Assembly: GCA_964396185.1 (NCBI GenBank)
Contig: CAYNEI010000009.1
Location: 3,057-67,056, forward strand
DNA length: 64,000 bases
Source: an uncultured Thermoplasmatales archaeon
GTDB taxonomy: Archaea; Thermoplasmatota; SW-10-69-26
Reading direction: 5' to 3'
Shown: positions 1,798-60,525 of the stretch, in pieces
Layout of the letters: each line of letters starts with the position of its first letter
How positions within the stretch are numbered: the first letter of the stretch is position 1
The notes under the pieces: generated by a model
What the model saw: only the letters and a program-made list of their open reading frames with translations
Told to the model about the DNA's origin: nothing
The model's database searches: none
Position numbers and translations under genes: made by a program

Positions 1798-1807
1798 GCG
1801 ACGACCG

Positions 1808-1846
1808 GAACACGAAGGCCACGAAGAGGACACGAAGGGCACGATG
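1808..1846. repeat. orphan half-arm of the periodic repeat family (CACGAAGG units)
   Basis: GAACACGAAGGCCACGAAGAGGACACGAAGGGCACGATG directly after the ferritin stop. No complementary CCTTCGTG arm before trm1. Confidence 0.6.
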
Positions 1847-5553: not shown

Positions 5554-5955
5554 TCACGGGACCTCGTGGATCCGCTCGATGCCCGCCTTGTCGAAGTCGT
5601 CGTCGAAGCTGACGATGGCATCCAAGCCCTCGCGCTCGACGACGAGGAGCGCGTAGGCATCCGAGAGGCTCAAGCTGCCATCGAACCTGACGACGAGTTC
5701 CATGCTCTCGTCCAGATCCTCGGCGGTGGGCATATGCAGGACCATGTCGTCGCGCATGGCCTCGTAGGCGTGGCGGGCAGCCGTACCGCCGCGTCTGGAA
5801 CCCACGTTGGCGACGACCTCGGCCACGGCCAGGGCGTGGACGTGGAACGGCCGGCGGGCGTCGACCTCGGGCTTGAGGGCTTGGACTGCAAGGTGCCAGG
5901 GGTCGCGTGGGTCTGCCAGCGCGATCATGAACGAGGCGTCGATGAAGACCGGCAT
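5554..5955 (-). CDS. vapC: PIN-domain ribonuclease toxin VapC
   Basis: MPVFIDASFMIAL (N-terminal acidic Asp), central E/D residues and C-terminal FDDDF, as in PIN domains. Immediately downstream of an AbrB-type antitoxin gene. Confidence 0.85.
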   Translation of the reverse strand: MPVFIDASFMIALADPRDPWHLAVQALKPEVDARRPFHVHALAVAEVVANVGSRRGGTAARHAYEAMRDDMVLHMPTAEDLDESMELVVRFDGSLSLSDAYALLVVEREGLDAIVSFDDDFDKAGIERIHEVP

Positions 5956-5980
5956 CTAGGAGGGCTCCTCGAGCGTTAGG

Positions 5981-6217
5981 CTAGGTCTCTCCGCGCTGAG
6001 CACGCTTCTTGGCCTCCACCGCATCGCCCCCGCCAGCCCCGGGCGCGATCCCGACGATGTCCCAGAGGGTCTTCTTCCGGCGGAAGCGCACCCGCACCTC
6101 GCCGTCCTCGGTCTCCTCCCAGACGACGAGGTCGCCGGGCTCGATGCCGAACTTGTGGCGCAGCTCGGCCGGCACCTGGGTCTGGTTCGCATCAGTGACC
6201 TTGGTGGACGTGGACAT
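5981..6217 (-). CDS. vapB: AbrB/SpoVT-family antitoxin VapB
   Basis: 78-aa product; VTDANQTQVPAELRHKFGIEPGDLVVWEE matches the swapped-hairpin AbrB/MazE motif. ATG at 6217. The 201-aa ORF in the track is an upstream read-through of non-coding DNA. Confidence 0.8.
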   Translation of the reverse strand: MSTSTKVTDANQTQVPAELRHKFGIEPGDLVVWEETEDGEVRVRFRRKKTLWDIVGIAPGAGGGDAVEAKKRAQRGET

Positions 6218-6249
6218 ACAATGTAGTTCTTCGTTTACAATGTATATAT
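6218..6249 (-). promoter_or_regulatory. vapBC promoter/operator: direct repeat ACAATGTA x2 plus TATATAT box
   Basis: ACAATGTA at 6218-6225 and 6237-6244, followed by the TATATAT tract. This is the only AT-rich patch upstream of vapB. Confidence 0.5.
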
Positions 6250-6438
6250 GGGTTGTCCTTGTAGAGAGCATAGTCGTGACATCGCGGTCCCGGTCCATCG
6301 CTCCCGCGTCGGCCTTCGGCGCTCCGCGGGGCGATGGCCGGGCGCATCCCGACCGATCGCACCGGCTCTCGCGGTTGGGCGGGCGCGCTCGGTCGGGGTG
6401 CTTCCACGCCGGCGCCGCGGTGTCGACCGGCCTGGAAG

Positions 6439-13922: not shown

Positions 13923-14843
13923 TTGCCCCTCCCAGCACGCACCACCGGGATCCTTGCCACCATGGGTGCAGCGGTGCTCTGGGGCAGCTCGTTCCCAGCC
14001 AACCAGATCGGCCTCGAGCACATGGGGCCCGGCGTCTTCGTGGCCGCGCGCTTCGCGCTGGCCGCGTTGATCGTGCTACCGTTCGCCTGGCGGCTCATCC
14101 GGGAGACCATGCAGCGCTGGGAACCCTGGGCCCTGGGCGCGGTCAACGCCGTGGCCTTCCTGCTGCAGTACGTCGGCCAGACCACCGCGCCGGCTGGGGC
14201 GGCTGGGCTGCTCGTCAACGCCAACGTCGTCGTCGTGGCGCTCGTGGCCTGGGTGTGGCTGGGCGAGGATCCCACCCGGCGCACCTGGGTGGCCATGGGG
14301 GCCGCTCTCGTGGGCGCATCGCTGATCATCTACGAGCCAGGCCAGGGCGCGATCCAACTCGGCCACCTGCTCGTCTTCCTGGCAGGGGCCACGTGGAGCT
14401 TCTACATCGTCGGCACGCGCGCCAGCTTGCTCGATGGGCACTCGCCCACCTCGCTCGCCCTGGCAACCTTCGTGACCAGCGGCGTGCTGCTCTCCCCCTT
14501 CCTGCTTCTCGAACCCCTGCCCACAGCAGCTGTCCCCGTGGCCATGATCGCCTGGACGGGGATCGCGTGCACCGTGGGCGCCTTCGCCCTCTGGCTGCAT
14601 GGCCTGCGCAGCGTAGGTGCTACCGCCAGCGCGGTGGTGCTCCTGCTGGAGGTCTTCGTGGCCGCTGCCCTGGGGGCCTGGCTGCTCGCCGAGCCCTTCC
14701 CGCCGCGCAAGCTGCTCGGTGGCCTGGCCATCGCGGTCTCGATCCTGGTGCTCTCTGGTCGGGGGGACGACCTTGAACCACAAGGCCACAAGGAGCACAA
14801 GGGGATCGCGGGGGAGGGGTACCACGGGGAAGACGCGGGATGA
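13923..14843 (+). CDS. EamA/DMT-family transporter
   Basis: Ten hydrophobic segments in two EamA-like halves (AAVLWGSSFPANQIGL...; ATWSFYIVGTRA...). TTG start, with an ATG alternative at 13962. The last ~22 codons are encoded by the repeat element at 14775. Confidence 0.8.
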   Translation: MPLPARTTGILATMGAAVLWGSSFPANQIGLEHMGPGVFVAARFALAALIVLPFAWRLIRETMQRWEPWALGAVNAVAFLLQYVGQTTAPAGAAGLLVNANVVVVALVAWVWLGEDPTRRTWVAMGAALVGASLIIYEPGQGAIQLGHLLVFLAGATWSFYIVGTRASLLDGHSPTSLALATFVTSGVLLSPFLLLEPLPTAAVPVAMIAWTGIACTVGAFALWLHGLRSVGATASAVVLLLEVFVAAALGAWLLAEPFPPRKLLGGLAIAVSILVLSGRGDDLEPQGHKEHKGIAGEGYHGEDAG

Positions 14844-14947
14844 GGTAGGCTCGGCCGCGTGTGGCTCAGGGAGGGCGCTCTACAGGCTGGGCCCGTCTCC
14901 CTGGTTCCGTTGTGGGCCGTTGTGCCGTAATGCCGTTGTGGTGAACC
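14775..14947. repeat. periodic-arm palindromic element (CACAAGG / CCGTTGTG type)
   Basis: Left arm GAACCACAAGGCCACAAGGAGCACAAGGGG plus a G/A-rich tract. Right arm CCGTTGTGGGCCGTTGTGCCGTAATGCCGTTGTGGTGAACC. Arms are complementary with periodic 1-nt bulges. Confidence 0.75.
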
Positions 14948-14959
14948 GTCGTCAGACCG

Positions 14960-19330: not shown

Positions 19331-20911
19331 TCACGAAGGCCCAGCCACAGCCTGCCGGAGCCGCTCGAGCACCCAGTCCCGCTCCATGCCGGCCAGGAAC
19401 GGGCCCAGACGCGGGCCTCGGCCGGTGCCCAGCACGGCCAGATAGGCCGCCTTGAAGATGGAGCCCGCGCCTGTGTCGGTCTGCTCGGCGGCTTGGTAGA
19501 CGGCGTTTTGGACGCTGTCTGCGTCCCAGTGGACATCCTCCAGGGCTTCCAGGAAGGCTTGCAGGCGTTCCCGGTGGATGTCCTGGAGCAGCCCGTGGGG
19601 GACCTCGTCGGGGAGCTCGAACTTCACCATGTCCGGGGCGAAGGAGGCGATCCAGTTGCGGGTGTGCTCTATGCGCAGGCGCAGGAGGTCCTCCTCGGCC
19701 TTCGTGATCTCATCGAGGTCCCCGCTGCGTCGCACGCTTGCCAGCACGGCGTCGGTCTCGTCGTAGAGCTGGACGAGGGTGGCCAGGTGGCGCATGGGGA
19801 CGCTCTGGCCAGGACGCTCGGGTAGCTGGCCGGTGGGTTGGCTGAGCCAAAGCACGCGCTCGACGTCGTTGATCTCCTGACTCTCACCTTGCTCGTGCCA
19901 GTCCACGAGCGTGCGATCGTATTCGTCCACCAGGTCCAGGATGCCCATGCCTGGGTCGAACTCCACGTGCTTGGCGGGCTGGTAGCGCATGAACAGGAAC
20001 CGCAGGGCCTCTGGAGGCGTGACGTCGAGCACGTCCTCGGCAGCGATCCCGGTGCCTGTGGAGGAGTGCATGGCGCCTTCGCCCTTGACGTGGATGAACT
20101 CGTAGGTCGTGTGGTGCGGGGGCTCGTGGTCGAAGACCTGGCGAGCGATGGGCTGGGCGGTATCCCAGCTGCCGCCGCTGGCGGCGTGGTCCTTGCCGAA
20201 GGCCTCGAACGTGACACCCAGGAACGACCAGCGGGCCGGCCAGTCCACGCGCCAGGCGAGCTTGCCGATGCCAGGCTCCCGGATATCCACGCTGCCCTCG
20301 TGACCACACGCGCACATGTACTCCACCTCCGGGTACTCGTAGAGCACTGGCGTCGTGGCTGAGATGGAGCCGCAGGCTTGGCAGCGCACGTTGAGCGGGA
20401 TCCATGTCGGTTCGAGATCGCGCCCGGAGACCTCGGTCAGGATCCCCCGGATGAGCTCGGCGCTGGCCATGGCCTTCTCGATGCTTTCGGCATAGGCTCC
20501 GCCCTCGTAGAGCTCGTGGGCCAGCTTGACCTCAGGCCGGATGCCCAGGTCCTCTAGCGCGCCCAGGAATGGCTCGAGGAAGTGGTGGGCGTAGCTCTCA
20601 TGCTCGCTGCAGGGGCAGGGGATCGCGGAGAGGGGCTGGCCGACGTGGGCCTCGTAGTCGATGCCCGCCGTGTTGACCGCCGGGTCCTCGAGGAACGGGG
20701 AGACCTTGCGCAGCGGGTCGTAGGTGTCCCCGATGTAGAGCAGGGTCGAGTTGCCTCCGAGATCCTCTAGAGAGCGGTGCACGGCCTCGGTGGTCGCCAC
20801 CTCGCGCAGGTTGCCCACATGGATCGGTCCCGACGGGGTGATCCCCGTGGCCAGCGTGTGGGTCGAGGCTTGCTCGAGGAGCTCCCGGGCCAGGACGTCT
20901 GCCCAATGCAT
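19331..20911 (-). CDS. lysK: lysyl-tRNA synthetase, class I
   Basis: TPSGPIHVGNLREV (HIGH-type), a Cys cluster (CQACG...CACGH), and the length and architecture of archaeal class I LysRS. Confidence 0.9.
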   Translation of the reverse strand: MHWADVLARELLEQASTHTLATGITPSGPIHVGNLREVATTEAVHRSLEDLGGNSTLLYIGDTYDPLRKVSPFLEDPAVNTAGIDYEAHVGQPLSAIPCPCSEHESYAHHFLEPFLGALEDLGIRPEVKLAHELYEGGAYAESIEKAMASAELIRGILTEVSGRDLEPTWIPLNVRCQACGSISATTPVLYEYPEVEYMCACGHEGSVDIREPGIGKLAWRVDWPARWSFLGVTFEAFGKDHAASGGSWDTAQPIARQVFDHEPPHHTTYEFIHVKGEGAMHSSTGTGIAAEDVLDVTPPEALRFLFMRYQPAKHVEFDPGMGILDLVDEYDRTLVDWHEQGESQEINDVERVLWLSQPTGQLPERPGQSVPMRHLATLVQLYDETDAVLASVRRSGDLDEITKAEEDLLRLRIEHTRNWIASFAPDMVKFELPDEVPHGLLQDIHRERLQAFLEALEDVHWDADSVQNAVYQAAEQTDTGAGSIFKAAYLAVLGTGRGPRLGPFLAGMERDWVLERLRQAVAGPS

Positions 20912-28544: not shown

Positions 28545-28620
28545 GCCACCCGACGGGTGGGGGTATAAAAGCTTGATTGGTCAATCTGTTGAAACGAAGG
28601 GCAGAGTGCCGCGAGACGTT

Positions 28621-28808
28621 CAACACGGAGGCACGGAGACACGGAGCGAACGGAGGAAAGGGGGACGTGGAAGGACCGGAAAGGCGGGATAATCGAGGCG
28701 GTCAAAGAGATGTGGTCCGTCATCCCGCTCACGATGGACAAAATTATAGGATTATAGCAGTTCAGCACGGATCCTTCCGTTCTCCGTTCGCTACGTGCCT
28801 CCGTGTTA
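28621..28808. repeat. periodic-arm palindromic element (CACGGAG / CTCCGTG type), paralogue of 35001-35279
   Basis: AACACGGAGGCACG (28622-28635) pairs perfectly with CGTGCCTCCGTGTT (28794-28807), and AGCGAACGGAG pairs with CTCCGTTCGCT. The first 36 nt match the 35001 copy with 1 mismatch. Confidence 0.85.
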
Positions 28809-28839
28809 GACGGTTGTCTCGGTGCCTCCACGCCCTCCC

Positions 28840-30201
28840 TCACCGCTCCCCGAAGCGTTCCAGCACCCGGCCGAAGGCTTCGCTCCCCTTCCAGAAGTGC
28901 TCCAGGCGGAAGAACTCGTCCGGGGCGTGGAGACGCTCATCGGTCATGCCGTACCCCATGAGCACCACGGGCCCCAGGCTCTCCAGGGTCGGGATCACCG
29001 GGATCGTGGCCCCCTCCCGGATGTAGAGGGTCTCGTTCCCGAAGGCCTCGGTGAGGCATCCGCCAGCGATCTCGAGCACCGGGTGGTCCGGGGAGGCGTA
29101 CCAGGCCGGCGCTGCTTGGAGCACCTCGCCTTCCAGGCGCACGCCAGTGGGCAGCAAGCCTTCGAGATGATCGAGCACCGCTTGCCCGATGGCGTCGGGG
29201 TTCTGGTCGGGCACGGTTCGCACGCTGAGTTTGACCGTGGCGGAGGCGGGCAGCACGGTCTTGAAGCCGTCGCCAGCGTACCCGCCGGTGAGCCCGTTGA
29301 CCTCCAGGCTCGGCCTGGCCCACAGCTGCTCCTGGGGTGTGTAGCCGGCCTCACCCATGGGCACCTCCACGCCCGTGCCTGCCAGGAAGGCCTCCGCGCT
29401 GAACGGGACGGCATCCATCAAGCTGCGTTGAGCGTCATCGAGCTCGCGCACGTCATCGTAGAACCCGGGAACGGTGACGTGCAGGTCCCCGTCCTTGAGC
29501 CCACCGACGGCGCGTGCGAGGGCTTCTGCGGGGTTCATCACGATCCCGCCGAACTGGCCGGAATGGAGGTCGCGATCCGGCCCGTGGACCGTGGCCTCCA
29601 TGGTGACGATGCCGCGCATGCCGTGCACGATGGACGGGGTCTGGGCATCCCACAGGTGGGTATCCGAGACGATGACCACGTCGCTGGCCAGCGCGTCCCG
29701 GTTCTCCTGGATGTAGCGGGGCAGGCTGTGGCCCCCCACCTCCTCTTCCCCCTCGATGAGCACGCGCAAGTTGACCTCGAGCGTGCCGGCAGCCACGTGG
29801 GCCTCGATGGCGCGCAGGTTGGCGAAGAGCTGGCCCTTGTCGTCGGTGGCCCCGCGAGCCCGGATCCGATCGCCGTCGTAGACCGTGGGTTCGAAGGGTG
29901 GCGTGGTCCAGGCATCCAGGGGATCAGGCGGCTGCACATCGTAGTGGCCGTACAGGCAGACCCAGTCGGCCTCCGGGTCCAGCTCGAGCTCCATGTGGAT
30001 GAGCGGGAGGCCGTCGTCCACGACCTCGAGCCCGCCTTGGAAGCCCAGGGCCTGCAGGCGATCGACCAACCATTCGGCCGCCTTGCGGCAATCTTCCCGG
30101 TGTCCCGGGTCTGTGCTCACGCTCGGGATGCTCAAAAGCTCCTTGAGCGACGCCAGGCCCTCGTCCTGGCTGGCCTCCAACCGGTCGAGCCATGCGGGCA
30201 T
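28840..30201 (-). CDS. M20-family metallopeptidase (dipeptidase/ArgE-DapE-like)
   Basis: LYGHYDVQP, ARGATDDKGQ, IEGEEEVGG, HSGQFGG. 453 aa from the ATG at 30201. The 640-aa ORF upstream part and the 629-aa antisense ORF are rejected. Confidence 0.85.
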   Translation of the reverse strand: MPAWLDRLEASQDEGLASLKELLSIPSVSTDPGHREDCRKAAEWLVDRLQALGFQGGLEVVDDGLPLIHMELELDPEADWVCLYGHYDVQPPDPLDAWTTPPFEPTVYDGDRIRARGATDDKGQLFANLRAIEAHVAAGTLEVNLRVLIEGEEEVGGHSLPRYIQENRDALASDVVIVSDTHLWDAQTPSIVHGMRGIVTMEATVHGPDRDLHSGQFGGIVMNPAEALARAVGGLKDGDLHVTVPGFYDDVRELDDAQRSLMDAVPFSAEAFLAGTGVEVPMGEAGYTPQEQLWARPSLEVNGLTGGYAGDGFKTVLPASATVKLSVRTVPDQNPDAIGQAVLDHLEGLLPTGVRLEGEVLQAAPAWYASPDHPVLEIAGGCLTEAFGNETLYIREGATIPVIPTLESLGPVVLMGYGMTDERLHAPDEFFRLEHFWKGSEAFGRVLERFGER

Positions 30202-33335: not shown

Positions 33336-33476
33336 GATCACCACGCCGAGCAAGCTCACCACACCGGAAAGCTCACCACAAGGGCACAAAGGACACAACG
33401 GGCCAGAAGGGGACGATCGAAGCGGTCCCCATGGTCCTCGGGAGATGTTCGTGTCCGTTGTGACGTTGTGGTGAGG
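33336..33476. repeat. periodic-arm palindromic element (CACAAGG / CCGTTGTG type)
   Basis: CTCACCACAAGGGCACAAAGGACACAACGGG (33372-33402) faces GTTCGTGTCCGTTGTGACGTTGTGGTGAGG (33447-33476). Degenerate extra units lie at 33336-33371. Confidence 0.75.
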
Positions 33477-33988: not shown

Positions 33989-34993
33989 ATGCGTTCGAGC
34001 GCGCTGCTCGCCTGCTGCCTCTTGCTGGCCGCCGGCTGTCTGGCCACCGAGGAGCCCAACAGCCGATCCCCAGGCTCACAGAGCGCGACAGAGCGCTTCG
34101 AGCTCCCGGAGACCCTCTACCTCGACGCAGACACCCGGCTGAGAGGCGATGCGCCCACGGACCAGGAGGCCGAGGGGGTCCCGGTGGGGAGCTTTTACAC
34201 CGCTTGGGCTGAGGGCGCCGAGCAGCCCACGTGGACGGGGCCCGCGCTCTCGAGCCCAGCGAGGGTCACCAACGCGACCCTGACGTTCTACTACACGGCG
34301 GAGACCACGGTGGCGACCACCGGGCCCCAGGACCAGGGCTTCCCCGAGTTCGTGGTCTACTTGGGGACCGAGCAAGCCCCCATGGGCTGGGCCAGCCTCC
34401 AGGGCCCGGACGTTGTCCAGCAAGGCGACCAGGTGGAGATCACCGGAGAGCTGTCGCTGCCAGCCGGTGGCTTGGTCTACAGGACCGGGGATGCACCCGT
34501 GGTCAAGATCGCTCCGGTCCAAGCCCAGGGCGACGAGGGCTCCCGGCTGATCATCCTGGTCGACGGAGCCGAGGCCCCCAGCCGTGTGGACATGGACGTC
34601 GAGCCCGTCACGCTCCCAGGCTGGACGCCCGGCACCCCCATCCAGCACGACGGGACCTTGGCCGGAAGCGCGTATGCGACGGGCCCGCAGGAGGGCACGA
34701 CGGCAGCCTCCTTCCCGGTGGATCTCCGGCCCGGGCACGCGGGCATCATCGTGGACCTTGAGCGCGCCACGGGGGCGGGCATCGCGGACATCGACCTGGA
34801 GCTGATCGGCCCCGACGGGGTGGTGGTCGCCCGGAGCGTCACCCCTGAGGACGACGAAGGCTTGGCCCTCTTCGCGCCGAACGTTGAGGCCATCGGGCAC
34901 GGGACCTGGACCCTGCGCGTGGTCAACTACGGCAACGTGGCGGTCCAGTTCGAGCTGACGGGGAACGTGCTGGACGAGCTGGCCGGCACGTAA
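33989..34993 (+). CDS. lipoprotein with C-terminal pre-peptidase (PPC)-like beta-sandwich
   Basis: Lipobox LLLAAGC. The C-terminal IIVDLERATGAGIADIDLELIGPDG...GTWTLRVVNYG resembles PPC/P-domain modules. Confidence 0.65.
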   Translation: MRSSALLACCLLLAAGCLATEEPNSRSPGSQSATERFELPETLYLDADTRLRGDAPTDQEAEGVPVGSFYTAWAEGAEQPTWTGPALSSPARVTNATLTFYYTAETTVATTGPQDQGFPEFVVYLGTEQAPMGWASLQGPDVVQQGDQVEITGELSLPAGGLVYRTGDAPVVKIAPVQAQGDEGSRLIILVDGAEAPSRVDMDVEPVTLPGWTPGTPIQHDGTLAGSAYATGPQEGTTAASFPVDLRPGHAGIIVDLERATGAGIADIDLELIGPDGVVVARSVTPEDDEGLALFAPNVEAIGHGTWTLRVVNYGNVAVQFELTGNVLDELAGT

Positions 34994-35000
34994 GACCCAT

Positions 35001-35279
35001 CAACACGGAGGCACGGAGACACGGAGGGAACGGAGACAGGAGGAGGGTGTGGAAGGACGGGAAGGGGAGGGAGACTGGAGGAAGACCAAGAGATGAGTGG
35101 GCCGGCGTCGAGCTTCGGATGGACTGAGTTAGAATGAGTATGACAGTTCCGGGGCCCCTATAGATCGCCTCTCTGCCGTCTGCCGCTCCGTTCGATGAAG
35201 GCCATCGTCTTTTGCGCGGACGCGCGCTCCTCTCGAATCTGGCGATTTGGTCTCCGTTCGCTCCGTGTCTCCGCGTTGT
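35001..35279. repeat. periodic-arm palindromic element (CACGGAG / CTCCGTG type), paralogue of 28621-28808
   Basis: GGAGACACGGAGGGAACGGAGAC in the left arm pairs with GTCTCCGTTCGCTCCGTGTCTCC (35250-35272), with 1 mismatch. The interior is also homologous to the 28621 copy, plus an extra ~90 nt. Confidence 0.85.
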
Positions 35280-35291
35280 ATCCCTCACCGC

Positions 35292-36896
<1,605 letters not shown>

Positions 36897-39447: not shown

Positions 39448-39612
39448 CCAGGATCGGATGCGTGGCCGGGTTCGCCGCGAGCCTCATGGGCTGGTCAAGC
39501 GTCCCGCGTAGGTCCACATTGCCGCTCACGTGACCGGGAACGACTCCTCTCAGGAGTGGTTCGTCCCTTGCCCCTGTTAGCGTTAAGTAGGAGGAGGGGT
39601 TTGGACGGCCGA

Positions 39613-41493
39613 ATGCGACTCCTGCTCATCCACGCTGATCGCATCCGCTTCCAGGCCAAGAAGGCCATCAAGCGTTTGGCTGAGGATCTGGAGTCCACGA
39701 CCGGCGAGCAGGATGGGCTCGAGGAGACCCTGGTCGCCTTCTGCACCATCGAGTCTGGCGACGAGGGGAACCCCGAGGGGATCATCGAGAACGCTGTGGC
39801 CACGATCCGTGACCACGCGGACCAGGTGAAGGTCGAGCGCGTCTTCGTCTACCCCTACGCGCACCTCTCTGACGACCTCGCCTCACCCAAGTTCGCCACG
39901 GACCTGACCATCCAGCTCACCGAGGCCCTGACCGATGCGGGCTTCGAGACCAAGCGCTCGCCGTTCGGCTGGTACAAGTCCTTCCAACTCGAGGCCAAGG
40001 GCCACCCCCTGGCCGAGCTCTCCCGCACCATCACGGCGGAGGGCGAGGGCAGCGAGCTCGAGGTCGAGGCCGGCACCGATGCCGAGTCGGCTGCGGTGGC
40101 CAAGGAGACCCAACTGGCCAAGGAGTGGAAGATCCTCACCACCGACGGCGAGCTCGTTGATCCGGATGACTTCGATTTCACCGACCACGCGGACCTTGAA
40201 GCCCTCTACCAGCATGAGGCCCACGGCTCGCGCAAGGCCAAGGGCAAGCCTGCCCACGTGGAGCTCATGCAGGAGCTCGAGCTCGTGGACTACGAGCCCG
40301 GCGCGGATGCAGGCAACTTCCGCTGGTACCCGAAGGGTGCGCTGGTCAAGCGCCTCATCGAGGCCCACGTGAGCGAGATCGCAGGCGAGTTCGGTGGCAT
40401 GCGGGTCGAGACGCCGATCATGTACGACTACGAGCACCCGGCGCTCAAGAAGTACCTCGACCGGTTCCCCGCCCGCCAGTACATCCTGAAGAGCGAGGAC
40501 AAGGAGTACTTCCTCCGGTTCGCGGCCTGCTTCGGCCAGTACCTCATCGCCCACGACATGACCCTCTCCTACCGGCACCTGCCCGCCCGGCTCTACGAGC
40601 TAACCCACTACTCGTTCCGGCGCGAGCAGACCGGCGAGCTCAGCGGGCTGCGCCGGCTGAGAACGTTCACAATGCCGGACATGCACACCATCGTGCGCGA
40701 CGTCGACCAAGCCAAGGAGGAGTTCCTGGCCCAGTACCGGGAGAGCGCCCGTTTCATGGCGGACCTGGACCTCCCATACTACCCAGCCCTTCGGTTCGTG
40801 CGCAGCTTCTACGAGGAGAACCAGGACCTGGCCGCCCAGCTCGTGGAGACCATCGGCAAGCCAGCCCTCGTCGAGCTCTGGGACGACCGGTTCTTCTACT
40901 TCGTCATGAAGTTCGAGTTCAACGTCGTGGACACCCAGGGCAAGGCCAGTGCCTTGTCCACCGTCCAGATCGACGTGGAGAACTGCGAGCGCTTCGACAT
41001 CACGTACACGAACGAGGAGGGCCAGAAGGCCACGCCTCTGATCCTCCACGCCTCCTTCAGCGGCAGCGTGGACCGCGACGTCTACGCGCTCCTGGAGACC
41101 GCAGCCCGACGAGCTGGCGCGGGCGAGAAACCCTCGCTCCCGTACTGGCTCTCACCGACCCAAGTACGGTTCATCCCCGTCTCGGACGATTTCGTACCCC
41201 ACTGCCTCGAGCTCGCGGGAGAGCTCGACGCACGGGCCGATGTGGACGACCGGGACGAGACCGTGGGGCGGCGGATCCGGGATGCCGAGAAGGAGTGGGT
41301 TCCGATCATCATCGTCGTCGGCGACCGGGAGCTGGACAGTGGGGAATACCCTGTCCGCGCCCGCACCGGCGAGGAACGCGAGCTCGACCGCGAGGGCCTC
41401 CAGGCCCACGTGCGAGAGCTCCAAGGGGGGTTACCAACCGAGCCGCTACCGCTACCGGTGCGCGTCTCTGCACGACCGATCTTCAGAGGTTGA
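39613..41493 (+). CDS. thrS: threonyl-tRNA synthetase, archaeal type with N-terminal editing domain
   Basis: MRLLLIHADRIRF (archaeal DTD-like editing domain), class II core (FRREQTGELSGLRRLRTFTMPDMH), and an anticodon-binding end (PTQVRFIPV). ATG at 39613 preferred over 39556. Confidence 0.92.
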   Translation: MRLLLIHADRIRFQAKKAIKRLAEDLESTTGEQDGLEETLVAFCTIESGDEGNPEGIIENAVATIRDHADQVKVERVFVYPYAHLSDDLASPKFATDLTIQLTEALTDAGFETKRSPFGWYKSFQLEAKGHPLAELSRTITAEGEGSELEVEAGTDAESAAVAKETQLAKEWKILTTDGELVDPDDFDFTDHADLEALYQHEAHGSRKAKGKPAHVELMQELELVDYEPGADAGNFRWYPKGALVKRLIEAHVSEIAGEFGGMRVETPIMYDYEHPALKKYLDRFPARQYILKSEDKEYFLRFAACFGQYLIAHDMTLSYRHLPARLYELTHYSFRREQTGELSGLRRLRTFTMPDMHTIVRDVDQAKEEFLAQYRESARFMADLDLPYYPALRFVRSFYEENQDLAAQLVETIGKPALVELWDDRFFYFVMKFEFNVVDTQGKASALSTVQIDVENCERFDITYTNEEGQKATPLILHASFSGSVDRDVYALLETAARRAGAGEKPSLPYWLSPTQVRFIPVSDDFVPHCLELAGELDARADVDDRDETVGRRIRDAEKEWVPIIIVVGDRELDSGEYPVRARTGEERELDREGLQAHVRELQGGLPTEPLPLPVRVSARPIFRG

Positions 41494-58979: not shown

Positions 58980-59028
58980 GGATGCCAAGAGATGGGCGGG
59001 GTAGAAGGGGTTTGCGCTGGCCAACCAA

Positions 59029-59416
59029 CCTAGATCACGAAGGGCACGAAGGGGTCACCAAGGACACGAAGGAGGAAGAGGGGGAGGAGCGGGAAGAGCG
59101 GGAAGAGGTGGAAGAGGGACATGACGGATGATCCAGGGCCTTCCCGTGCTGGCCAGCCAACCTAGATCATGAAGTGCACCAAGTGGTCACCAAGGACACG
59201 AAGGAGGAAGAGAGGGAGGAGCGGGAAGAGAGAGGGAAGAGGTGGAAGAGGGAGACGACGGGCGGTCGAGTGCCCGCCCGTTGTTCCTCTCGCCCCTGGT
59301 GCCCTTCGAGCTTCTTCGTGTCCTTCGTGATCCAGGTCCTGGGCCTTCACCCACCCACCCGTGTTCCTGCTATCCTTGGTGCCCTTCGAGCTTCTTCGTG
59401 TCCTTCGTGATCTAGG
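59029..59416. repeat. compound periodic-arm palindromic element (CACGAAGG / CCTTCGTG type): two left arms, two right arms
   Basis: Left arms start CCTAGATCA[C/T]GAAG at 59029 and 59161. Right arms GGTGCCCTTCGAGCTTCTTCGTGTCCTTCGTGATC at 59298 and 59378 are identical over 35 nt. Termini GATCACGAAGG and CCTTCGTGATC are perfect inverted repeats. Confidence 0.88.
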
Positions 59417-59461
59417 TCGTCGGTCGGAAGGGCTTAACCGACCAGCCTCTATCTCGACGCG

Positions 59462-60366: not shown

Positions 60367-60525
60367 GAACCACAAAGTCACAACGGACACAACGACCACG
60401 ACGTGAGATGAGTCGGTCCATCATGGAGGTGCCCAGCAGCCCGTGGATCCACCAACATGGCCGGGTCGTGGCAGGTCGTACTGGGTCGTGGTGGGTCGTT
60501 GTGCCCCTTGTGCCGTTGTGGTTGG
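60367..60525. repeat. periodic-arm palindromic element (CACAACGG / CCGTTGTG type)
   Basis: AACCACAAAGTCACAACGGACACAACG (left) faces CGTTGTGCCCCTTGTGCCGTTGTGGTT (right), about 27-nt arms with a few mismatches. Extra GTCGTGG units on the right. Confidence 0.78.

Follow-up and report, generated by a model that had tools for sequence, protein, structure and literature searches.

The DNA analysed here, referred to as the window, is a stretch of 64,000 nucleotides (nt) from contig CAYNEI010000009.1, and it contains two copies of a long palindrome whose arms are built of tandem CACGGAG units. Copy 1 lies between the stop codon of a gene encoding an M20 peptidase (28840-30201 on the minus strand, assigned by Pfam, with its TGA stop at 28840-28842) and the start of the next minus-strand gene, while copy 2 occupies the gap between two convergent genes, one at 33989-34993 on the plus strand and the methylmalonyl-CoA mutase gene at 35292-36896 on the minus strand. 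The coordinates of both copies, of their parts and of the related elements of the window are collected in Table 1.

Copy 1 is an imperfect palindrome of 188-190 nt with no open reading frame (ORF) and with stop codons in four of the six frames. An initial annotation, made from the sequence, had placed it at 28621-28808; the palindrome is indeed there, with limits that are slightly wider. The other anatomical details of that annotation were recovered. The 5' arm holds four tandem units, CACGGAG at 28624-28630, 28632-28638 and 28640-28646 and AACGGAG at 28649-28655, following the pattern CACGGAG plus a purine (R) in units of 8-9 nt. The arms pair through a perfect stem of 14 base pairs (bp) (28622-28635 with 28794-28807) and another of 11 bp (28645-28655 with 28782-28792), the inner stems GCGGGAT/ATCCCGC and GGACC/GGTCC are both present in the minimum free energy fold, and the interior has the AT-rich core that had been described. 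The arm pattern is matched eight times in the window against 1.68 expected, a count reached by none of 100 shuffles. The fold energy of copy 1 is -88.6 kcal/mol, which compared with shuffles gives z = -6.07 for the plus strand and -5.37 for the minus strand. A scan for bacterial promoters and terminators around copy 1 gave nothing, the models being bacterial and the host archaeal.

We also compared the two copies, which had been called a near-identical pair. This holds for the arms and not for the interiors, which share about 80% identity over about 95 nt and then diverge, copy 2 being 90 nt longer (278 against 188 nt). The first 36 nt differ at two positions rather than at the single one that had been reported, one of the two lying within the first 35 nt; the right arms differ, as claimed, at 3 of 27 nt. 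The 12-mer CCCTCACCGCTC had been noticed beside both copies, and exact matches in the window are confined to these two places; beside copy 1 it does take in the M20 stop codon together with the two codons before it. It could be a part of the element, a target preference or a coincidence.

Table 1. Periodic-arm elements of the window and the parts of copy 1.
Feature	Coordinates	Strand	Remarks
Copy 1, whole palindromic element, gene-less	28617..28812	.	Repeat detection and fold
Copy 1, 5' periodic arm: CAA, CACGGAG, G, CACGGAG, A, CACGGAG, CG, AACGGAG	28621..28655	+	Period 8, 4.0 copies
Copy 1, G/A-rich tract behind the 5' arm	28656..28683	+	Common to copy 2 and other periodic-arm elements of the window
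Copy 1, AT-rich core of the interior, AAATTATAGGATTATAGC	28741..28758	.	Minus strand reads TATAAT twice
Copy 1, 3' arm, CCGTTCTCCGTTCGCTACGTGCCTCCGTGTT	28776..28808	+	Complement of the 5' arm minus one unit; nearly A-free
12-mer CCCTCACCGCTC, first exact copy	28837..28848	+	29 nt past element copy 1
Copy 2, same subfamily	35001..35278	.	Arms 35001-35043 and 35250-35278; interior longer
12-mer CCCTCACCGCTC, second exact copy	35282..35293	+	3 nt past element copy 2; overlaps the mutase stop codon
Solo periodic arm, CACGAAGG type	1806..1845	+	No detectable partner
Periodic-arm palindrome, arms GAAC-CACAAGG x3 and CCGTTGTG x3-GTGAAC	14776..14950	.	G/A-rich tract after the 5' arm
Periodic-arm palindrome, CTCAC-CACAAGG / CACAAAGG type	33372..33475	.	
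Periodic-arm palindrome, CACGAAGG type	59028..59417	.	
Periodic-arm palindrome, CACAA(A/C)G type (CACAACG)	60368..60523	.	Fills an intergenic gap

The arm of these copies is very widespread. Its three-unit form, CACGGAGNCACGGAGNCACGGAG, gave at least 120 matches in a collection with one genome per species and was also found in 44 viral contigs of IMG/VR, while the four-unit variant with AACGGAG as last unit, as in the window copies, gave at least 120 matches in metagenome contigs. At least nine bacterial phyla have paired arms, and the taxa named in the record titles are Planctomycetota, Acidobacteriota, Chloroflexota, Myxococcota, Geobacteraceae, Nitrospirota, Gemmatimonadota, Thiotrichales, Kiritimatiellia, Lentisphaeria, Opitutaceae and others. 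At most loci a complementary partner arm lies 10 to about 600 nt away (63-71 paired elements), and the consensus reveals a fixed architecture, with an A-rich stretch followed by TTCAC or a variant of it, three units with a purine spacer and a few purines. The loops, on the contrary, share nothing in sequence and vary in length. When the interior was searched against 2.1 Mb of related loci, the arms alone matched, and no interior homologue was found beyond this genome. In three IMG/VR loci, CACGGAG arms lie within a few hundred bases of genes for portal/adaptor, major head and head-decoration proteins (L251 at 3291, L263 at 7683, L268 at 8887), so that phages are plausible carriers of the element between lineages.

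The initial annotation did not recognise the palindrome as a described family, and our searches agree with it. At the gathering threshold, Rfam found one tRNA in the whole window and nothing else; at a relaxed threshold it added two hairpin models of plant microRNAs and no more, scoring 18-20 bits where the cut-offs are 137-168, and on 14 related loci it gave nothing relevant. A blastn search of copy 1 against plasmids had no match. Literature searches with the arm strings, the translated peptides and the term GxxExxY (a protein family discussed below) returned no description of the element, in a corpus that leaves most subscription journals outside its coverage, so that an earlier description is possible.

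Two variants were seen at the margins of the family. At six loci (L023, L032, L072, L020, L042 and L029, from Pirellulales, Frigoriglobus and Nostocaceae), CACGGAGA forms long one-sided tandem arrays that number from 5 to above 8 units, pass into CAGGGAGA or CAAGGAGA arrays and have no inverted partner. This suggests a slippage-driven expansion of an arm, and the one-sided arrays of cyanobacteria, Pirellulales and actinomycetes may be a different thing. In a low-GC lineage (about 40% GC) a version of 213-279 nt is found at L148 (2112-2351) and in 52 further distinct copies (L124-L242). Its arms are layered, its AT-rich flanks (TTTGAAGCAA ... CCTATTATATAAGA) are conserved, and contigs hold several copies each; its neighbours encode DUF4132 and AAA-ATPase_like plus PDDEXK_9 proteins.

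Evidence for mobility comes from relatives that are inserted in frame in protein genes outside the window, namely Lhr-type helicase genes (two copies in L006, others in L293 and L294) and a DNA methyltransferase gene, which is split by an in-frame copy in L099. The two copies in the planctomycete locus L006 appear as inserts of about 90 amino acids (aa) in linkers when the protein is aligned with the sequence of the Mycobacterium smegmatis Lhr structure (PDB). We compared Lhr orthologues of one planctomycete clade (77-83% identity). At site 1 the element-derived peptide DSPRRHGGTE...PPCLRGES is found in orthologue P0241 only; site 2 is filled in P0241 and P0245, degenerate in P0244 and empty in P0243, P0247 and P0248; site 3 is filled in P0249, degenerate in P0242 and empty elsewhere. 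A check at the DNA level found site 3 filled in L293 and empty in L294. This presence and absence at three sites of orthologous genes is insertion polymorphism, and therefore the element is mobile. The ends of the insertions are sharp (GATTCACC...GGTGAATC, four insertions). No target-site duplication was visible at these four insertions or at the window copies, although in the absence of a closely matched empty site a duplication of 1-2 bp is possible. In public assemblies of the same organism (Logan SRR12687320/1; L121, L122), contigs begin or break off precisely within the arms of copies 1 and 2, as assemblers do at repeats.

Other palindromes were also observed in the planctomycete Lhr genes. 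A second in-frame family, with arms GGCGAGCGGGGCGGCGTCAGCCCCCC and the peptide GERGGVSPP...GGLTPP, occurs in L006 (1500-1760 and 3060-3350) and at site 3 of L293 and L295, and a third family is GTGAGCGGCACGGCGCTAGCCGCCGG; both are found nested with CACGGAG elements, with either one as the outer palindrome. In L293 the GGCGAGCGGGGCGGCGTCAGCCCCCC palindrome is nested inside a CACGGAG element, and in L006 the nesting is the reverse. Site 2 of L295, which has no CACGGAG element, carries a perfect small palindrome, AAAGCCCAGGGGTT/AACCCCTGGGCTTT. The Lhr linkers seem to collect palindromes of many kinds.

The composition of the arms is of interest for such in-frame copies. The first 47 nt of copy 1 contain no T, the first one being at position 48, and the 3' arm is almost A-free; as every stop codon needs T and A, the arms are unable to encode a stop on either strand. 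Among 58 paired elements, an average of 3.31 of the six frames have no stop, while shuffles of matched composition average 1.89 (p = 1e-9). The period of 8 nt is not a multiple of three, so that an arm runs through all three frames and gives cyclic versions of one hydrophilic peptide. This frame rotation might be an adaptation, and the stop-free arms would let insertions survive inside genes.

In the few elements whose loop reaches about 375-600 nt, it encodes a protein of about 120 aa (L033, L103, L099 and L232). This protein matches TIGR04256, "GxxExxY protein", and Pfam PF13366, PDDEXK_3, a PD-(D/E)XK nuclease family; a 2012 survey (PMC3424549) gave no known function for the GxxExxY family and listed many transfers of it between divisions. 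A search with a hidden Markov model (HMM) found six GxxExxY genes in the 2.1 Mb of loci, which had been selected for arm matches, and all six lie inside or directly beside arms. In L099, copies with and without the gene have identical termini. In the same locus (5704-6308, a Polyangiaceae metagenome-assembled genome) the order on the gene strand is 5' arm, proximal 3' arm, GxxExxY gene and second 3' arm; as both 3' arms are possible partners of the 5' arm, the gene may lie outside or inside the hairpin.

As an independent sample, we took eight GxxExxY genes from plasmids. Three of them (Bacteroides, Bernardetia and Sphingomonas) are enclosed by clear periodic-arm inverted repeats with a TTCAC start, whose units, CACAGAGG and CGCGAAGG, differ from CACGGAG; these loci (L289, L288 and L290) thereby join the four named above in having arms plus gene. 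The Treponema gene has a short inverted repeat with one CACGGAT unit, and the Gemmatirosa plasmid has a periodic hairpin beside the gene. Two genes have direct repeats and one has nothing. The direct repeats measure about 22 nt in L298 (a Fusobacteria plasmid) and about 60 nt in L299 (a Prevotella plasmid). We also noticed that the cassettes of the first three plasmids stand between housekeeping genes and are co-oriented with both neighbours: fabD and fabG in Sphingomonas, radA and the gene for a FAD protein in Bacteroides, ade and a mannose-1-phosphate guanylyltransferase gene in Bernardetia. The link between arms and GxxExxY is therefore frequent and not universal. Copies 1 and 2 of the window have the arms of such cassettes (a TTCAC-type start, three to four purine-rich units of 8-9 nt and the complement at the far end), and an HMM made from two such proteins found no GxxExxY gene or remnant in the six-frame translation of the window. 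Thus, the window copies are gene-less relatives and not cassettes.

Considering these results together, we think it probable that the element is a non-autonomous, selfish mobile DNA palindrome, resembling the MITEs (miniature inverted-repeat transposable elements), and belongs to a periodic-arm superfamily whose full-length members carry a GxxExxY gene. A selfish mobile palindrome is well supported by the data. The MITE-like nature proposed by the initial annotation is borne out by a very large family with conserved termini and variable interiors and by the polymorphism in orthologous genes. Copy 1 has terminal inverted repeats, a small size and no coding capacity, and dispersed copies with evidence of insertion exist (two in the window, at least 120 public matches and the variation in Lhr). 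Two other properties of MITEs were not found: the target-site duplication, and a transposase-encoding parent insertion sequence (IS) with the same ends, the longer relatives encoding GxxExxY / PF13366 instead. Members of the superfamily would consist of an A-rich stretch, TTCAC or CAAC, three to four CACGGAG+R units, the complement on the opposite side and a loop of any content, and the window copies would have lost the GxxExxY gene or never had it. How the element moves is inferred. Copies may be moved in trans by a nuclease able to recognise the repeats of the arms or the hairpin or cruciform into which they fold, for which the GxxExxY protein is the obvious candidate, and copying may follow a cut-and-repair, homing-like route favouring the centres of palindromes. 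That the GxxExxY nuclease drives the element is a reasoned guess. The two window copies most likely have no host function, while side effects on transcripts are possible.

Several observations weigh against this interpretation, and above all against the role given to the nuclease. Only about 2% of the arms enclose a GxxExxY gene, and half of the independently sampled genes are without clear periodic arms; consequently, the nuclease could be a passenger instead of the driver. To our knowledge, neither a nuclease activity nor a target has been reported for the GxxExxY family, and the protein found no match in PDB, in PADLOC (defence) or in PHROG (phage). The 61 ORFs of the window include no match to a transposase, an integrase, the RAYT family (Y1 HUH; see below) or PDDEXK_3. 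The absent target-site duplication leaves the chemistry of integration open. No insertion polymorphism was shown for the window copies themselves, as the nearest relatives of the M20 gene (57-64% protein identity), which have no element, are too distant to define an empty site. Moreover, a near-identical arm across domains is hard to explain by transfer alone, and a conserved host factor may be responsible instead.

We therefore considered other explanations of the same data. The hairpins might be mobile alone, through a host or phage enzyme acting on single-stranded hairpin DNA, with GxxExxY genes as separate selfish genes that settle in safe loops; the window copies would then be ordinary members and not derivatives of a nuclease cassette. 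The large share of arms that have no GxxExxY gene (about 98%) and the GxxExxY genes that have direct repeats or no arms would be expected under this explanation. The loops, which also take in other palindrome families and copies of the same family, point the same way, and a missing target-site duplication would fit a hairpin-based, HUH-type insertion. Nevertheless, we judge it unlikely, considering that TTCAC-start periodic arms with different units flank GxxExxY in unrelated phyla, which looks like a property of the cassette and not like a chance landing, that gene-carrying and gene-less copies within one genome have common termini, and that the copies examined had no transposase, of HUH or other type, in their vicinity. 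Movement by RAYT, the IS200-like TnpA transposase associated with repetitive extragenic palindromic (REP) sequences and bacterial interspersed mosaic elements (BIMEs), would likewise account for a multi-copy intergenic palindrome with no target-site duplication. We regard it as very improbable: the ends have the sequence CAAC/TTCAC-CACGGAG and lack a GT[AG]G or CGTC head, the stems are of 30-40 bp and the loops of up to hundreds of nt, compared with REP units of 20-40 nt, the window ORFs include no Y1 transposase, and REP families are lineage-specific, in contrast to a periodic arm common to many phyla. The term "REP-like" used in the initial annotation is thus not supported, for want of a GTAG/CGTC head and for the length of the element (190-280 nt), which far exceeds that of a REP.

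That the element is a functional RNA, either a cis-acting hairpin or a small RNA serving as a processing site, an mRNA stabiliser or a transcript barrier, appears improbable to us in spite of its stable predicted folds (copy 1, z = -6.1; copy 2, z = -2.7). In either copy the plus strand is the better folder, by 11-18 kcal/mol, each copy starts a few bases at most from a stop codon, and the variable spacer position is complementary in 77 of 138 cases against 54 expected (p = 2e-4). However, neither the sequence nor the length of the loop is conserved, copies stand in frame inside coding regions, the bacterial scan saw no terminator- or promoter-like signal, Rfam has no match, and the better-folding plus strand is antisense to both genes flanking copy 1. 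The mismatches of the other window elements are not wobble-biased; asymmetry between G:U and A:C in the stems is uninformative, since a palindrome on a random strand makes both classes symmetric by construction. For 30 members of the 53-copy low-GC subfamily, whose sequences are too similar for a strong test, the covariation term was -0.28, with three pairs showing double changes. The earlier suggestion of a structured RNA family is accordingly not supported, as outside this genome the arms alone are conserved and almost no covariation is seen in that subfamily. Finally, the tandem units could be an array of binding sites for a regulator of double-stranded DNA, the palindrome being a by-product. 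Three to four identical units with fixed spacing and a conserved sequence are what such an array would look like, but a spacing of 8 bp does not keep to the helical phase, the sites are found behind stops, between convergent genes and inside coding regions and not at promoters, and the neighbouring genes are unrelated across loci, with largely no consistent class among them; we give this explanation hardly any credence. Three further ideas were dropped: arrays of CsrA-binding GGA motifs, as the motifs are buried in perfect duplex; archaeal bulge-helix-bulge introns, as the stem has no such motif; and a sequencing artefact, as the arm is present in long-read assemblies and isolate genomes.

The two CACGGAG copies are not alone in the window, which holds eight periodic-arm elements (two CACGGAG, two nested CACGAAGG and four others), about one per 8 kb. 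A second copy of the CACGAAGG family, at 59160-59337, is nested in the centre of the element at 59028-59417, giving the order left half 1, left half 2, right half 2, right half 1. The elements with other units begin with GAAC, TCAC or similar, and a G/A-rich tract follows the arm. The DNA of the window is archaeal and probably belongs to Thermoplasmatota. Among its genes are those for aIF5A, Trm1, a lysyl-tRNA synthetase of class I and a threonyl-tRNA synthetase (ThrRS) whose editing domain is specific to archaea; besides the window as a whole, the evidence regions are 19331-20911 and 39556-41493. The closest named relatives of ThrRS, at about 60% identity, are metagenome-assembled genomes of Thermoplasmatota, and relatives of the M20 gene adjoin volactin, CdpA and PAC2 genes.

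The small palindromic repeats usually met in prokaryotes are lineage-specific and mostly have a known or suspected IS parent, whereas here one arm is found in an archaeon, in many phyla and in phages. A broader hypothesis, which we advance tentatively and with considerable doubt, is that periodic-arm palindromes form a pan-prokaryotic mobile class of Bacteria, Archaea and viruses, moving by a hitherto undescribed mechanism, in which the small GxxExxY nuclease would recognise the units or the hairpin and copy the element into palindrome centres with no target duplication. The arms would have evolved towards translational neutrality, being T-free and A-free and hence open in all six frames and giving a HGGTE(A/T)RR-type peptide in every frame, so that protein genes could be colonised along with intergenic gaps. 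If true, this would provide a name and a likely role for a very common protein family, GxxExxY / PDDEXK_3, and would account both for the odd low-complexity inserts (...SPRRHGGTE...PPCLRGES...) that recur in annotated proteins and for the breaks of metagenome assemblies at arm sites. If the link with the nuclease is correct, it would also represent a new route of DNA mobility aimed at hairpins, and a second, far wider case, after the Rickettsia elements, of selfish DNA in frame inside genes.

Several known systems resemble the element in part. Bacterial MITEs such as the Correia/NEMIS elements of Neisseria (PMC10969869) share with it terminal inverted repeats, a small size, the lack of an ORF, many copies, variable interiors and related longer elements with the same ends; MITEs derive from a known IS, whose transposase makes a target-site duplication, TA in the case of Correia elements. 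By contrast, no duplication was found at the four insertions described here, and the longer relatives encode a PD-(D/E)XK-type protein and not a recognised transposase. Like this element, REP/BIME sequences with RAYT (PMC3733652) are extragenic palindromes that occur in large numbers and show no target duplication, and a single-stranded hairpin may be the acting form of both; REPs are lineage-specific units of 20-40 nt with a GTAG or CGTC head. The present element differs in having no head, periodic stems of 30-40 bp and large loops.

The intervening sequences (IVSs) of 23S rRNA also place a small selfish ORF, for a four-helix bundle, in a long inverted-repeat stem and also exist in ORF-less versions, which occupy sites of the same kinds. 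IVSs sit in rRNA helices, and RNase III cuts their stems out of the rRNA. Here, on the contrary, the hosts are intergenic gaps and protein genes, and the cargo is another protein family than that of the 23S rRNA IVSs (PF05635, mentioned in PMC11270868). Free-standing homing endonuclease genes and the GxxExxY cassettes have in common a small gene, for a putative nuclease in the latter, standing between housekeeping genes (fabD/fabG, or after radA). Genes of the homing endonuclease type do not as a rule stand inside periodic inverted repeats.

A further parallel is offered by the Rickettsia palindromic elements (RPE), reportedly described by Ogata and colleagues in Science in 2000. RPE are, like this element, short palindromic selfish repeats found both between genes and in frame inside genes, where the peptide is tolerated, and neither of the two has an ORF or an obvious target duplication. 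RPE are known from Rickettsia and its close relatives only, have arms that are not made of tandem units, and are not known in a cargo-carrying form. Unlike them, the arm described here is found in an archaeon, in at least nine bacterial phyla and in phages, and its longer copies carry a predicted nuclease gene.

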